From: an uncultured Anaerolinea sp.
GTDB lineage: Bacteria > Chloroflexota > Limnocylindria > Limnocylindrales > CSP1-4
Reading direction: 5' to 3'
Assembly (NCBI GenBank): GCA_964580175.1
Contig: CAZOJS010000250.1
Location: forward strand, 1 to 49,284
Length of the DNA stretch: 49,284 nucleotides
The position numbers and the translations under genes are program-made. Positions 27,215 to 33,752 of this stretch are shown one piece after another. The notes below the pieces were generated by a model. It was not told the DNA's origin, ran no database searches, and worked only from the letters and a program-made list of their open reading frames with translations. The stretch's first letter is position 1. Each line of letters begins with the position of its first letter.

Positions 27215-28783
27215 ATGTCGCCGGCCGACGTACGGCTGGGTGAGTTCCGGCCTGAGTCGCGGGCGCTGCCGCGCTTCTTCGTCTGGACGCTTGGCTGCCA
27301 GATGAACCGGAGTGATTCGGAGGAGATGGCGGGACGCCTCCTCGCGACCGGTGCCACCGAGGCGCCGACCATGGAATCGGCCGATCTCGTCGTCATCAAC
27401 ACCTGCGCGATCAGGGAGCTCGCCGAGACCAAGGTCATCGGCCGGCAGGGCCATCTGCAGCGTCTCAAGGCGGCCAATCCGTCCCTGCGCGTGGTGCTGA
27501 CGGGCTGCGCCGTTCGCGAGCGGGATCGGGATGGCCTGGAGCGCCGCTATCCGGCCGTCGACCTCTTTCTGCGCCCAGACGAGGAGCCGGAGCTGGCGGA
27601 CCGGCTTGGCTTGGTCTCGGCCCAGGCACCAGTCGGAGCCGTTGGCGCAACGACGGTCGTCGGTCGGACGGTCGTCGGCGTGGCCGATCACCTCTCGGCC
27701 ACACGCGCGTCGGCGGTCGCCGCTGGCTCCGTCCATCGAGAATCGGCCATTTCCGCCTGGATCCCGATCATCTACGGCTGCGACAAGACCTGCACCTATT
27801 GCATCGTGCCGTTCAGCCGCGGCCCAGAGCGTAGCCGGCCCTACGACGAGATCGTCAGCGAGGCGCGTGCCATAGCCGCGGCCGGCTTCCGGGAAGTCAC
27901 GCTGCTCGGGCAGAACGTGAACTCCTACGGTCACGACCTGCCGCCTGACCAGCGTTTTGGCCACATCAAGACCCAGCGCTGGGCCGGTCGGCGCCTCGAC
28001 CTCGGCTCGAAGCCGGACCTGGCGGAGTTGATCCGGGCGATCGACGGGATCCGTGCGGACGACGGCGTTCCGGCGATCCCGCGGCTTCGGTTCATCACGT
28101 CGCATCCGTGGGACCTGTCCGATCGGTTGATCGAAGCGATGGCGGACTGCCCATCCCTGTGTGAATCGCTGCATCTGCCGGTCCAGTCGGGCGACAACGA
28201 GGTCTTGCGGCGAATGGGCCGCCAGTACACCACGGAGCACTATCTCGAGCGGCTCGACCGGATTCGTGGCGCCGTACCCGGGATCACCACCAGCACCGAC
28301 GTGATCGTCGGATTCTGCGGCGAGACCGAGGCGCAGTTCGAACGCACGCTCCGATTCCTCGAGACCGTGCGCTACGACCAGGTCTTCGCGGCGGCCTACT
28401 CGGAGCGGCCGGGCACCCCGGCGACGCACCTCGCGGACGATGTTCCGGCGGCGGACAAGCGCCGCCGCCTCAATACGCTGCTCGCCGTCCAGGAACCGAT
28501 CGGCCTCGAGCGGAACCAGGGTTGGCTCGGACGCGAGGTCGAGGTGCTCGTCGAGCGCGTCGCCCGCCCCCGTACGCACGAGCACGATGACCCCGAGCCG
28601 GCGGGGGAGGGGAGTGCGCCACGCGGCGTGCAACCGCGTCCGGGCGAGGTGGCAATGTCCGGTCGGTCGCGCGGCAACAAGCTGGTTCACCTGGCGGGTC
28701 CGGCCGATTGGGTCGGACGGCTCGTCACGGTCCGCGTCGAACACGCCGGACCGTATGCACTACGAGGCACGCCGGTCGCGTGA
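27215..28783 (+). CDS. miaB: tRNA-2-methylthio-N6-dimethylallyladenosine synthase
   Basis: FVWTLGCQMN, radical SAM site CDKTCTYCIVP, C-terminal TRAM domain. Start at ATG 27215. Confidence 0.92.
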   Translation: MSPADVRLGEFRPESRALPRFFVWTLGCQMNRSDSEEMAGRLLATGATEAPTMESADLVVINTCAIRELAETKVIGRQGHLQRLKAANPSLRVVLTGCAVRERDRDGLERRYPAVDLFLRPDEEPELADRLGLVSAQAPVGAVGATTVVGRTVVGVADHLSATRASAVAAGSVHRESAISAWIPIIYGCDKTCTYCIVPFSRGPERSRPYDEIVSEARAIAAAGFREVTLLGQNVNSYGHDLPPDQRFGHIKTQRWAGRRLDLGSKPDLAELIRAIDGIRADDGVPAIPRLRFITSHPWDLSDRLIEAMADCPSLCESLHLPVQSGDNEVLRRMGRQYTTEHYLERLDRIRGAVPGITTSTDVIVGFCGETEAQFERTLRFLETVRYDQVFAAAYSERPGTPATHLADDVPAADKRRRLNTLLAVQEPIGLERNQGWLGREVEVLVERVARPRTHEHDDPEPAGEGSAPRGVQPRPGEVAMSGRSRGNKLVHLAGPADWVGRLVTVRVEHAGPYALRGTPVA

Positions 28784-29727
28784 CCGGCGCCCCGCCGCTG
28801 CTGGTCATCGCCGGTGCCACGGGTACCGGCAAGACGGGACTCGCCGTCCGCGTCGCACGGGCCCTCCAGGCCGAAGGTGTGGCCGCCGAGATCATGTCGG
28901 CCGATTCCCGGCAGGTCTTTCGCGGGTTGGACATCGCCACGGCAAAGGTCACACCTGAGCAGCGCCAGGGCATCCCGCACCATGGCCTCGATCTGGTGGA
29001 CCCGGATCAGCCGTTCAGCGTGGCCGACTTCGCGGACCACGCGAACGCGCTGCTGCCGCCGATCGCCGAGCGCGGCGGCATCGTGATCCTCGTCGGCGGA
29101 ACGGGCCTCTATCTCCGGGCCATCGCCCGTGGCCTCGATACAATCGCCCTGCCGTCCGACGCGACGGTGCGGGCGAACCTCGAAGCCGAGCTGCTGGCCG
29201 GTGGGCTCCCGGCGCTCGTCGCGCGTCTCGTGGAACTGGCCCCTCAGCGGGCTGCCGATATCGACCTGCGCAATCACCGCCGTGTCGTACGGGCGCTGGA
29301 GATTGCGACCCTCGATGGGGGAGCGGGCCCGCTGCCGGCCCCGCGCGGGTACGCAGGGCCGCTCGCGTGGATCGGTCTGACGGTCGAGGCCGCAACGCAC
29401 CGCGCCCGGCTCGGCGCCCGCGCCCGTGCGCAGTTCCACGCCGGCCTGATCGAGGAGGCGCGATCACTGCGAGAGCGCTTCGATCCCGCCTTGCCGGCCT
29501 TCAGCGCCATCGGGTATCGCGAAGCCTGGGCCGTCCTGGACGGGAAGATCGACCGCGAGGCAGCGATTGCCGGGAACGTGCAGCGCAACGTGGCCTTTGT
29601 GAAGCGCCAGCGAACCTGGTTTCGTGCGGAGCCGGACATCGCCTGGCTGGATGCCACGATCGGCACCGCGGACACGGTGGCCCTGAAGACCGCGCGGCGG
29701 CTCCTCGGCAACCTCGATCGGCGCTGA
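28780..29727 (+). CDS. miaA: tRNA dimethylallyltransferase
   Basis: P-loop GATGTGKT, SADSRQVFRGLDI. GTG start overlaps the miaB stop (GTGA). Confidence 0.92.
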   Translation: MTGAPPLLVIAGATGTGKTGLAVRVARALQAEGVAAEIMSADSRQVFRGLDIATAKVTPEQRQGIPHHGLDLVDPDQPFSVADFADHANALLPPIAERGGIVILVGGTGLYLRAIARGLDTIALPSDATVRANLEAELLAGGLPALVARLVELAPQRAADIDLRNHRRVVRALEIATLDGGAGPLPAPRGYAGPLAWIGLTVEAATHRARLGARARAQFHAGLIEEARSLRERFDPALPAFSAIGYREAWAVLDGKIDREAAIAGNVQRNVAFVKRQRTWFRAEPDIAWLDATIGTADTVALKTARRLLGNLDRR

Positions 29728-31133: not shown

Positions 31134-32117
31134 ATGGTGTCCGCTTCGGGCACCTCGGCCCGGAGTTCTCCCTTGACAGACACCATCGCACGAGATCTGC
31201 ACGACGATCTGGCCCTGCTGATCGAGCTTGAGCCCGAGGCGGCCCGCCTCTACGACCGCCACGCACGGGTCGCCGAGGAATGGTTTCCCCACGATGTCAT
31301 CCCGTACCGGCTCGGGCGCGACTTCGACAAGGAGCCCTGGACCCCTGACCAGCCGCGCCTGACCGGCGTAGCCCAAACGGCCTTTGAGGTGAACCTCCTC
31401 ACCGAGGACAACCTGCCCGCCTACCACCGGCTCATCCACGGGATGTTCGGGGCCGGCGACGGTGCCTGGATCAACTGGATCGGTCGCTGGACCGCCGAAG
31501 AGGGGCGCCATGCCATCGTCCTGCGCGACTACCTGACCGTCACCCGGAATCTCGATCCGATCGCGCTCGAGCGGGGACGGATGACGCAGCTCCAGCATGG
31601 CTACGATCGCGACACGATCGACACACTGCGCGGCCTGGCGTACGTGGCGTTCCAGGAGCTGGCGACCCGTATCTCCCACAAGAACACCGGGCGCTATTCC
31701 GACGATCCGGTCGCAAACAGGATCATGACCCGGATCGCGGCCGACGAGAACCTGCACATGGTCTTCTACCGCGACATCCTGGGCGCGGCGCTGCGGATCC
31801 AGCCGTCACGAGCCGTCCGGGCGATTGTGGCCGAGGTGCTGGCGTTCCAGATGCCTGGCCACGGCATCCCCGGGTTCCTGCGCAAGGCGGCCGCCATCGC
31901 CAAAGCGGGGATCTACGACATCCGGATCCATCGGGACGAGGTCCTGGTCCCGATCATCAACCACTGGAAGATCTTCGAGTTGACGGGCCTGGACGCCGCG
32001 GCGGAAGAGGCCCGGTGGGCCCTGGCGGCGCATCTCGCCACGCTGGAGGCAGCGGCCAAACGGTTCGAGGAGAGGCTCGCCTTGTCGACCGTCCCGAGGA
32101 TCGTACGCGCAGGCTAG
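31134..32117 (+). CDS. Acyl-ACP desaturase (soluble di-iron, DesA-type)
   Basis: NLLTEDNLPAYH, di-iron ExxH motifs EEGRHAI and DENLHM. Confidence 0.85.
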   Translation: MVSASGTSARSSPLTDTIARDLHDDLALLIELEPEAARLYDRHARVAEEWFPHDVIPYRLGRDFDKEPWTPDQPRLTGVAQTAFEVNLLTEDNLPAYHRLIHGMFGAGDGAWINWIGRWTAEEGRHAIVLRDYLTVTRNLDPIALERGRMTQLQHGYDRDTIDTLRGLAYVAFQELATRISHKNTGRYSDDPVANRIMTRIAADENLHMVFYRDILGAALRIQPSRAVRAIVAEVLAFQMPGHGIPGFLRKAAAIAKAGIYDIRIHRDEVLVPIINHWKIFELTGLDAAAEEARWALAAHLATLEAAAKRFEERLALSTVPRIVRAG

Positions 32118-32200
32118 TGCGGCGAGTCGCCCACCCCGAGGGCCCCTTCCGCCCCAATCGTGGACGAGCTGTGGACGGGACCCTCGAAATGGCCATTGAA

Positions 32201-32388
32201 TCGCGAAATGTCGTGGATAAGTGGGTATCGGACCCGGGTGGCCGCAGGGTACATTACGTCTTGCCCGGAGAGGCAACGAACCAGAACGATCAGGTCGATG
32301 CTTGCATGGACCACAGAACGCAGGGTGCTTGCACCAGGCGGGATGGATCGGGAAGGGGAGTGGTTTCTCCGGGCGTTTTCGTGTCCCC
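32201..32388 (+). repeat. Copy A of a diverged ~190-nt tandem element (candidate structured RNA or leader)
   Basis: Shares five collinear conserved blocks with copy B, located 364 bp downstream (details in findings). Lies in a 645-bp non-coding region. Confidence 0.5.
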
Positions 32389-32406
32389 GGCCGGGAGCGA
32401 CGGTCG

Positions 32407-32427
32407 AGCTGGACGCGTCCAGCTTTC
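32407..32427 (+). terminator. Perfect 18-nt palindrome AGCTGGACGCGTCCAGCT followed by TTT (terminator-like hairpin)
   Basis: 7-bp stem plus a CGCG loop, 18 nt after the end of copy A. Only three U follow, so terminator function is uncertain. Confidence 0.3.
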
Positions 32428-32564
32428 CGGGGGCAATGAGGGCCTGTCCGGGTGTGCGGACGCAGACCTCCGGGCTTGTGGTCCGCCGTGTCGATGGGCC
32501 CGGCCCGCGGGGCCCGACCCGGTCGTGGATCGGATGTGGACGAGATCCTCAATTCGGACTCGGT

Positions 32565-32752
32565 TCTCGAAAACTAGTGGATAAAGCCCCTTCCGTCGCC
32601 CTGGGCCCGCCCGTAGATTAGGTCTTGCCCGAAGGGGCCCCAAACGATCGGTGGACCCACCCGTGCTTGCACAGGTCCCGCCCCGGAGCTTGCTCTGGTG
32701 GCGGAGGGGACACAGGTCGAGAGGCGGTTCCTTCGGGCGTTTTGCTGTCCCC
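32565..32752 (+). repeat. Copy B of the tandem element, directly upstream of the PLP-enzyme start
   Basis: Same blocks as copy A. Ends 5 nt before an AGGA Shine-Dalgarno and 16 nt before GTG 32769. Confidence 0.5.
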
Positions 32753-32768
32753 AGCACAGGATGTGACC

Positions 32769-33752
32769 GTGCCGTTCAGCGCCCGACACGATCCCGAGCT
32801 CGAAGTCGATGCGATCCGGTCTGCCCACCAGCGGATCCATCCAGCCTTCCGGAACAGCCCGCAATTCGTTCACGAAGGCCTGTCTGACCTGGCCGGGATC
32901 GACGTCGTCCTGAAGGTCGAGACGGTGAACCCGATCCGCGCGTTCAAGGGACGCGGCACCTGGCTTGCCATCGCGGGCCTGGCAGGGGAGGGGAGCATCG
33001 GGCCCGATCGGGCGGTCGTGGCCGCGTCGACCGGAAACTTCGGTCAGGGCGTGGCATTTGCTGCGCGCGCGCACGGCGCCGCGGCCGTCATCTTTGCCGA
33101 CGAGCACGCGAATCCCACCAAGCTCGACCGCATTCGAACTTTTGGCGCGACCGTCATCCAGCAGGGGAGGGACTTCGATGCAGCCCGAGAGGCGTCGGAG
33201 GCCTACGCGGCCAGCCACGGTGCGTTCCTGCTGCTCGACGGGGCCGATGCGCGCGTGGCGGCCGGCGCCGCGACCCTGGCTCTCGAGGTAACGGATGGCG
33301 TGGCCGCCGGTGCCCTGCCAGCACTCACAACGGCGTATGTCCCGCTCGGAAACGGTGCCTTGATCGTTGGCGTCGGCGCCTGGCTGCGCCACGCTGCCCC
33401 GAAGTGTCGAATCGTTGGCATTGCAGCGTCAGAAGCGCCGTCGATGGTCCTGTCCTGGGATGCCGGCAAGCTAGTTGAGACGCCGGAATCCGCCACCTAC
33501 GCCGAGGGCATTGCCTGCCGGGTGCCCATCCCAGAAGCGCTCGACATGATGGTCGGGCGCGTCGACGAGCTTCTGCTCGTGTCCGAGGCGGAGCTGCATG
33601 CGGCCGAGGCGCAACTGACAGCGGCGACCGGCATTACAGCGGAAGGCGCTGCGGCAGCCTCCTGGGCGGGCATGCTGGCCGACAGCCGCCGAGATGGCCC
33701 GGCCCTGGTCATCCTGACCGGCAGCAACGTTGCGACCCCGGCACGATCCTAG
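32769..33752 (+). CDS. PLP-dependent threonine/serine dehydratase-family enzyme
   Basis: PLP lysine in NPIRAFKGRG, STGNFGQGVAFAA, fold-type II pattern. GTG 32769 has AGGA 7 nt upstream (GTG 32763 is an alternative). Confidence 0.85.
   Translation: MPFSARHDPELEVDAIRSAHQRIHPAFRNSPQFVHEGLSDLAGIDVVLKVETVNPIRAFKGRGTWLAIAGLAGEGSIGPDRAVVAASTGNFGQGVAFAARAHGAAAVIFADEHANPTKLDRIRTFGATVIQQGRDFDAAREASEAYAASHGAFLLLDGADARVAAGAATLALEVTDGVAAGALPALTTAYVPLGNGALIVGVGAWLRHAAPKCRIVGIAASEAPSMVLSWDAGKLVETPESATYAEGIACRVPIPEALDMMVGRVDELLLVSEAELHAAEAQLTAATGITAEGAAAASWAGMLADSRRDGPALVILTGSNVATPARS

Follow-up and report, generated by a model that had tools for sequence, protein, structure and literature searches.

We analyzed a 49,284-nt stretch of DNA (hereafter the window) from an uncultured Anaerolinea sp. 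of the Limnocylindria, Chloroflexota (GenBank assembly GCA_964580175.1, contig CAZOJS010000250.1, positions 1–49,284, forward strand), in which the region 32118–32768 downstream of hflX carries two tandem copies, A and B, of a repeat unit. The two copies belong to a well-supported new family of structured RNAs, with ~190 copies and strong covariation, which is of a familiar general kind and appears to have an unusual dedicated promoter. We consider the chance slightly better than even that each repeat is an autonomous cassette of promoter, RNA and terminator that would make a small, stable hairpin RNA, the last copy of an array serving in addition as the leader of the next gene.

An earlier reading of the bare sequence (the sequence-only reading) had described two collinear copies of an element of ~190 nt, sharing five blocks at an offset of 364 bp, in front of a gene for a pyridoxal phosphate (PLP) dependent enzyme. 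All five blocks lie where it had placed them, and a composite pattern of blocks 2, 4 and 5 has only two matches in the window, one in each copy, where shuffled sequences lead one to expect 0. The unit itself is longer than proposed, as the similarity runs ~50 nt further upstream (32149–32185 corresponds to 32514–32550, with 76% identity), which gives units of ~245 bp each (copy A ~32159–32391, copy B ~32524–32755).

A Conserved RNA Fold Closed by a Terminal Helix

The copies of the window and of three relatives, nine in all, were aligned and folded with RNAalifold. In the resulting structure block 2 pairs with block 5 as a helix of 12–13 bp (P1), in which the differences between copy A and copy B are compensatory (GGAGAGG/CUUUCUCC vs. 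GAAGGGG/CCUUCCUUC). What had been seen in block 5 as a mini-hairpin with a UNCG loop is in fact the 3′ strand of this long-range helix, block 2 being the 5′ strand. From the outside in, the architecture consists of P1 joining both ends, an internal loop, helix P2, and a three-way junction with hairpins P3 and P4. P3 and P4 are each capped by G(CUUG)C; other copies have CUCG, GCAA or UUUA tetraloops instead. The predicted RNAs and their parts are as follows (CM, covariance model):

32262–32379, + strand: copy A RNA (predicted, 118 nt), CM match of 148/126 bits, supported by the fold and by covariation
Copy A helices: P1 32262–32274/32363–32375; P2 32287–32291/32346–32350; P3 hairpin 32293–32312; P4 hairpin 32319–32340; U-run 32376–32379
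32626–32743, + strand: copy B RNA (predicted, 118 nt), CM match of 134/114 bits, supported by the fold
Copy B parts: P1 32626–32638/32727–32739; P3 apex 32662–32672; P4 apex 32686–32697; U-run 32740–32743

The structure of this rod rests on the fold and on covariation; the transcript ends of both RNAs were placed from sequence features. Two details of the sequence-only reading do not agree with the fold. The sequence GTGCTTGCAC, which occurs in both copies and had been counted as block 4, stands at non-homologous sites: 32325 in copy A is the apex of P4 (aligned with 32686–32697 of copy B), and 32663 in copy B is the apex of P3 (aligned with 32298–32307 of copy A). The apparent swap of a fourth base pair (GGTC/GACC vs. 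GGTG/CACC) likewise arose from comparing non-homologous segments; in the covariation-supported fold of copy B, GUG at 32651–32653 pairs with CAC at 32712–32714.

Run on a gappy CM alignment (A4), RNAalifold gave a poor consensus. A model of 40 pairs was taken as the consensus of per-sequence minimum free energy (MFE) folds and built into a second CM, with which 91 copies were re-aligned (A5). In this alignment 86.9% of cells were paired, compared to 38–48% when the partners were slid, and double changes were present at 25 of the 40 pairs. The covariation score was 0.285 (shuffles 0.130, slid partners 0.02–0.08), and none of 500 shuffles attained the observed score. Alignment A6 (106 sequences) is independent, since its metagenome copies were retrieved by the upstream box pattern described below, with no RNA sequence in the query. 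Here 90.7% of cells were paired (38–48% slid), double changes occurred at 31 of the 40 pairs, and the score was 0.252 (shuffles 0.116, slid 0.01–0.06). The strong covariation in A5 and A6 thus bears out the earlier suggestion of a conserved structured RNA with compensated helices.

Near-invariant sequence is found in the strands of P1, which include an invariant tandem G·U, in the apex of P3 and in the trailing UUU; the junctions are variable. Because the G·U pairs in P1 are invariant, the + strand can be assigned as the RNA strand. The predicted RNA length in other lineages is ~90 nt or ~165 nt. About half of the metagenome copies have a short form of ~88–92 nt, a single rod that lacks P4 (L053, L055–L058, L064, L067, L071, L073, L076 and others); its apical loops are UUUA, GCAAA or CUUG, and the boxes, the −10 hexamer, P1 and the U-run are all kept. 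A few copies have a long form (CM match ~164–185 nt) with an extra hairpin capped by GCUUGC or GCAAUC, and therefore three apical hairpins. Long-form copies were located at:

L023, 633–807
L039, 3993–4156
L060, 2042–2225
L079, 1729–1913
L100, 957–1140
L108, 1912–2095

A Rigid Promoter-Like Module Precedes Every Copy

Every copy is preceded by a module with the consensus TTCGTGGAC-N4-TGTGGAC, ~35 nt, GAAAsTCGTGGATAAG, ~28 variable nt and TAnnnT, after which the helix begins. In the window we identified the following elements:

32159–32165, + strand: copy A box 1, CGTGGAC, a GTGGA box found upstream of essentially every copy
32170–32176, + strand: copy A box 2, TGTGGAC, at fixed spacing
32211–32221, + strand: copy A box 3, TCGTGGATAAG, whose reverse complement holds TTATCCAC, the core of the DnaA box; no other part of the unit is as well conserved
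32250–32255, + strand: copy A −10-like hexamer, TACATT
32524–32530, + strand: copy B box 1, CGTGGAT
32535–32541, + strand: copy B box 2, TGTGGAC
32575–32585, + strand: copy B box 3, TAGTGGATAAA
32614–32619, + strand: copy B −10-like hexamer, TAGATT

The spacing of these elements was determined in 173 unique modules. The distance from the start of box 1 to that of box 2 is 11 bp in 168 of them, box 2 and box 3 are 42 or 41 bp apart in 166, and the hexamer follows box 3 at 37 ± 1 nt in 170. P1 begins 7 nt after the hexamer's last T in 140 of the 173 modules, a number that is probably an underestimate as the script chose another TAnnnT match in most of the remaining ones. The sequence of the spacers varies while their lengths hold to ±1 bp. 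Among the TAnnnT elements there are 23 different hexamers, which without exception retain T1, A2 and T6; over all copies, each of these three bases is present in at least 97%. These fixed positions are the signature of a sigma-70 −10 element, which would put the predicted start of transcription on the first P1 base.

The module and the RNA occur together. In the window, TTATCCAC is found only at the two copies (0.15 expected), as are the boxes, and across all loci the three-box module is associated 1:1 with RNA copies. Among metagenome matches to the box pattern, the RNA follows in 78 of 80. At two loci (L006, 2546–2586; L011 as oriented, 2038–2078) the first copy has its boxes 1 and 2 within the last codons of hflX, as expected for a signal that acts as DNA; these codons encode a C-terminal peptide resembling ...FVDELWT. 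Module and coding sequence thus overlap in those lineages in which hflX is followed directly by the RNA. In silico, each copy thus appears to have a promoter of its own, as an independent small-RNA gene would. Promoters of the sigma-54, extracytoplasmic function (ECF) sigma and sigma-28 types were rejected by eye, as their spacing does not fit, apart from a loose likeness between GTGGATAA and GCCGATAA of the sigma-28-type −10. The rigid architecture provides a first handle on transcription signals in Limnocylindria.

The 3′ End and the Leader of the Downstream Gene

A UUU follows P1 in at least 97% of copies, in the order P1, G-UUU-Y and a conserved GYUGUSCCCGG. A standard terminator scan makes no call on P1 with its U-run, as the enclosed "loop" is ~90 nt. 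The tail after the U-run (GYUGUSCCCGG, within 32376–32391 and 32740–32755, and at most loci) resembles the start of the RNA (GUCUUGCCCGG). Pairing of its CCCGG with the 3′ strand of P1 is conceivable, as is a second hairpin opened by the tail, but no covariation with P1 was seen and the tail comes only after the U-run. The palindrome that had been pointed out behind copy A is present:

32407–32424, + strand: AGCTGGAC-GC-GTCCAGCT, followed by TTCC, a possible second terminator-like hairpin as read from the sequence

In several upstream copies at other loci the conserved tail likewise opens a CCCGG..CCGGG hairpin, which has a U-rich stretch behind it.

Between the last copy of an array and the start codon of a co-directional gene there are always 20–60 nt. 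Copy B has the last U of its UUUU at 32743, with the Shine-Dalgarno sequence at 32758–32761 and the GTG at 32769; it ends 20–26 nt from the start of the PLP gene, in agreement with the sequence-only reading. Such a gap leaves no room for another promoter, so that the promoter of the next gene must lie in or upstream of the RNA unit, and for the PLP gene the only possible promoters are those in or upstream of copy B. The MFE folds contain no pairing alternative to the 13-bp P1.

Gene Content of the Locus

The genes surrounding the repeats are:

28708–29727: miaA
29755–31059, + strand: hflX (TIGR03156 GTP_HflX, 7e-137), the constant upstream neighbor of the RNA locus
31134–32117: acyl-ACP (acyl carrier protein) desaturase-family gene, bordering the intergenic region 32118–32768 on its upstream side
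32758–33752, + strand: Shine-Dalgarno sequence AGGA (32758–32761) and PLP-dependent Ser/Thr-dehydratase-family gene (32769–33752), starting at the GTG at 32769 or at 32763

The product of the PLP gene matches Pfam PALP (2.7e-53), and its matches to the NCBIfam threonine-dehydratase models are below the equivalog cut-offs. It is identical to a database protein (P0001, 100% identity over 327 aa), and its near relatives are named Chloroflexota.

The intergenic region had been described as lower in GC than its flanks and as free of convincing open reading frames (ORFs). The dip in GC is present but marginal (0.62–0.68 in the repeat region vs. 0.65–0.70 in the flanks). Two ORFs do overlap the region (32160–32621 on the + strand and 32290–32757 on the − strand, 153 and 155 aa); neither has a Pfam match, and the differences in length among the copies of relatives are not multiples of three, which rules out a coding region.

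Distribution and Synteny

An exact-pattern scan of 185,579 species genomes, which bounds the phylogenetic range that we can report, yielded 48 loci, nearly all of them in metagenome-assembled genomes of Limnocylindria/Limnocylindrales and with one locus per genome. A covariance model of the core (R1) found 92 copies in 52 sources, and in the window only copies A and B. Overall, the unit is present in ~130 Limnocylindria (Chloroflexota) loci as one to three co-oriented tandem copies, and the relatives keep two or three copies at the same position. Seven loci come from bins with other labels, namely Sulfomarinibacteraceae, Dormiibacterota, Acidimicrobiia, Patescibacteria, Polarisedimenticolia, Binatia or Eisenbacteria (L008, L011, L015, L019, L021, L027, L049); their locus is of the Limnocylindria type, and these are probably mis-binned contigs. 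Limnocylindria are abundant uncultured Chloroflexota of soil and freshwater. We know of no regulatory RNA reported from this class, and a full-text literature search returned no paper that combines Limnocylindria with noncoding RNA.

On the upstream side, hflX was found on the same strand (tblastn) in every genome or relative locus with more than ~1.3 kb visible before the first copy, and also in most of the metagenome loci. Which gene follows a copy varies by lineage: a PLP enzyme, an Rce1/CPBP protease, an alpha/beta hydrolase, an EamA transporter or Amidase_2, the PLP gene following in only some lineages. With the metagenome loci included, the general order is miaA-hflX-[RNA ×1–3 ± desaturase/hydrolase]-(PLP)-CPBP. 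At two loci (L001, 5236–5837; L004, 4057–4670) a PhdYeFM antitoxin/PIN toxin pair lies just downstream of the PLP gene, where many other lineages have the CPBP protease.

No Match to Known RNA Classes

The sequence-only reading could not assign the element to a known class, and neither could we with covariance-model scans of the window and related loci. The Rfam 15 scan covered glycine, T-box, lysine, TPP, SAM, cobalamin, ykkC, ZTP, ydaO, 6S, Y_RNA, 5S, SRP and Chloroflexi-1. Over the whole window at the gathering threshold it returned only ASdes, inside the desaturase coding sequence; over 32050–32850 at E ≤ 10 it returned only chance matches to eukaryotic miRNA and lncRNA models; and 18 related loci plus the L011 copies gave no match. 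ARAGORN and Rfam gave no tRNA, tmRNA, 5S rRNA or SRP RNA at the locus.

The match to ASdes, a small RNA of tuberculosis (TB) bacteria, is at 31500–31567 on the − strand, antisense to the acyl-ACP desaturase. Above-threshold ASdes matches were also found in two relatives (L003, 1067–1134, − strand; L052, 5587–5654, + strand), and probably reflect conservation of the desaturase coding sequence rather than a small RNA.

Two described RNAs were rejected as relatives. Ms1 RNA, which is 6S-like, was considered since high G + C and the ASdes match gave the window an actinobacterial look. It has a synteny of oxidoreductase/HAD hydrolase (PMC9130861); synteny, size and shape differ here, and the organism belongs to the Chloroflexota. 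The uORFC-6-1 motif found near hflX in Bacillales sits upstream of that gene (PMC8632094), and is unrelated.

Proposed Mode of Action and Alternative Explanations

In the reading that we prefer, a DNA-binding protein would occupy the three GTGGA boxes, which lie on one helix face at ~102, 91 and 49 bp before the predicted start; these resemble DnaA boxes or, alternatively, 11-bp direct repeats such as are bound by response regulators of the OmpR/PhoB type. The boxes would feed a sigma-70-type promoter with a clear TAnnnT −10 and no good −35, from which transcripts would begin with the first P1 base. The RNA folds into a very stable rod, its ends joined by the 13-bp P1 and its top capped by the three-way junction with two CUUG hairpins. 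P1 and G-UUU-Y would then act as an intrinsic terminator, releasing an RNA of ~118 nt. Polymerase reading through the end of copy A would continue into copy B, and past copy B into the PLP gene, and the proximal copy would be at once a small-RNA gene and an attenuating 5′ leader. Copies A and B are old paralogues. Conservation resides in P1, with its invariant tandem G·U, and not in the loops, which points to a protein that recognizes the paired ends rather than to a seed or a metabolite pocket.

Several points weigh against this reading. There is no recognizable −35 element in the module, and GTGGATAA in box 3 is loosely similar to the sigma-28-type −10 (GCCGATAA), in which case the start could lie ~40 nt further upstream. 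A generic promoter and terminator scan gave no match here, its rules requiring a −35 hexamer and a loop of at most 8 nt, so that it is blind to a design of this kind. The start site, the 3′ end and the termination are all deduced from sequence. As CM alignments are fitted to the structure, the percentages of paired cells (86.9% in A5, 90.7% in A6) are somewhat inflated. Finally, all loci are syntenic, and gene order cannot separate an independent small RNA from a leader of the PLP or CPBP gene.

The latter possibility, a purely cis-acting leader, is a real though minority alternative. The element would be a riboswitch, or a protein- or tRNA-dependent attenuator, of the downstream PLP and CPBP genes, with the upstream copies as duplicated leaders, left for instance after loss of an intervening gene. 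Every last copy does lie 20–60 nt before a co-directional ORF, the RNA and the PLP gene stay adjacent down to ~57% PLP identity and do so in the short-variant lineage too, and at loci of the order hflX-RNA-hydrolase-RNA-CPBP each gene directly follows a copy of its own; the conserved U-run after P1 would suit attenuation. However, the downstream genes share no pathway (PLP dehydratase-like enzyme, CPBP protease, alpha/beta hydrolase, EamA transporter, amidase). The interior is variable and unlike a ligand pocket: the invariant positions are in the −10 hexamer, the strands of P1 and the apex of P3, the junctions vary, and the whole P4 arm can be lost or a hairpin gained. P1 comprises 13 bp and is G + C-rich, no competing antiterminator pairing was found, and if transcription starts at P1 there would be no upstream RNA to compete with it. 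Copy A and many other first copies precede another full promoter module and not a gene, and each copy has its complete three-box and TAnnnT module where tandem aptamers would share a single promoter. Four features disfavor a metabolite riboswitch in particular: the interior varies, an arm can be lost, the downstream genes are unrelated and P1 is very stable.

These data also bear on the proposal, made in the sequence-only reading, of a tandem cis-regulatory RNA of the glycine or T-box kind dedicated to the PLP enzyme. With a promoter-like module for each copy, a downstream gene that varies and a constant hflX, the dedication to the PLP enzyme and the tandem leader are not supported. The proposal survives in part, in that the gene-proximal copy, 20–60 nt from the start codon, must lie in the 5′ leader of the next gene. 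The locus is an example of an apparent tandem riboswitch, read by eye, that can instead be explained by duplicated units of promoter, RNA and terminator.

The small-RNA cassette could be more specific than outlined above, if its boxes are genuine DnaA sites and the unit is gated by DnaA in making a hairpin RNA with a terminal helix. We put this forward tentatively, as a suggestion more likely wrong than right and a little weaker than the cis leader. If true, the status of the replication initiator would be linked both with the PLP and CPBP genes downstream of hflX and with a dedicated small RNA or attenuator. We know of no small RNA for which such a DnaA-gated arrangement has been described.

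A protein scaffold or decoy comparable to Y RNA or 6S RNA, which would be a sub-case of the cassette reading, seems improbable. P1, the tandem G·U and the 3′ U-tail would bind a protein, and the upper module would be a lineage-specific accessory. The near-invariance of P1, including the G·U G·U, below an upper part of one to three hairpins would fit this, as would the tandem paralogues; the paired ends and the U-tail also recall the architecture of Y RNAs. On the other hand, there is no Rfam match to Y_RNA, YrlA or 6S even at E ≤ 10, no candidate partner gene such as rsr was seen in the conserved neighborhood, and P1 may instead be conserved because its 5′ strand overlaps the region of the start site.

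Very unlikely, in our view, is an element that acts only as DNA, such as the DnaA-box clusters of an origin or a site that titrates or reactivates DnaA (oriC, datA or DARS-like), with the hairpin as an incidental feature. The DnaA-box consensus is TTATCCACA/TTGTCCACA; box 3 (TTATCCACg) and box 2 (cGTCCACAg) come near to it, and the boxes are phased at 11 and 42 bp. The three-box pattern also retrieved an unrelated, box-packed region (L092, ~560–960, − strand as read). This has ~15 TGTGGA/TCCACA boxes in both orientations beside an A + T-rich stretch, and resembles a replication origin or a cluster of DnaA boxes; the ORFs nearby include no evident dnaA or dnaN. In contrast to this dense arrangement, each unit in the window has three boxes in a single orientation. 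The cumulative GC skew shows no strand switch near 32 kb, there is no A + T-rich unwinding stretch (GC at least 0.61 throughout), the neighbors are miaA and hflX instead of dnaA and dnaN, and the compensatory changes with conserved G·U make sense only in a + strand RNA. An oriC was rejected on the GC skew, the lack of an A + T-rich stretch and the RNA-type covariation. Binding of DnaA at the promoter would itself be compatible with the small-RNA cassette.

The 49 kb of the window contain only copies A and B, each genome has a single syntenic locus, plasmids and phages gave no match, and the overlapping ORFs match no Pfam family. A miniature inverted-repeat transposable element or other mobile repeat and a duplicated gene fragment were rejected on these grounds, which supports the sequence-only reading on this point.

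Comparison With Known Systems

The cassette suggests that a DnaA-box-like regulator site, the conserved miaA-hflX neighborhood and a small RNA are connected, which can be tested, and it can be compared with several known systems. In their 5′ leader position, their structured and covarying RNA, the U-run after the closing helix and their occasional multiplicity, the units resemble tandem riboswitches and T-box leaders. They differ from these in having a promoter module for each copy, an unconserved interior, a dispensable arm and unrelated downstream genes, and neither an alternative pairing for an expression platform nor an Rfam match was found. With Y RNA/YrlA and 6S-type RNAs they share ends that are paired in a conserved terminal helix, a U-tail, an upper module that varies and the presence of several paralogues. 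Unlike those, they have no Rfam match, no Ro/Rsr gene nearby and no central bubble of the 6S kind, and at 90–165 nt they are small compared to 6S RNA.

Tandem paralogous small-RNA genes are known from the NsiR1 repeats upstream of hetF in Nostoc, PrrF1/PrrF2 in Pseudomonas and OmrA/OmrB in E. coli. As in these systems, the copies are diverged and arranged head-to-tail, with conserved putative regulator sites of their own, a −10-like element, a short structured transcript (predicted here) and a terminator-like 3′ end. The cassette differs from them in that it has no sequence or Rfam relation to them and no obvious single-stranded seed, its last copy abuts an ORF, and it is preceded by three phased GTGGA boxes. 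DnaA-box-controlled promoters are known from dnaA and mioC in E. coli. The cassette would resemble these in the TTATCCAC-type boxes upstream of or overlapping a promoter, which is predicted here; unlike in the dnaA and mioC promoters, three co-oriented boxes stand at fixed positions, 1:1 with a small-RNA unit, and boxes 1 and 3 end in CACG instead of CACA.

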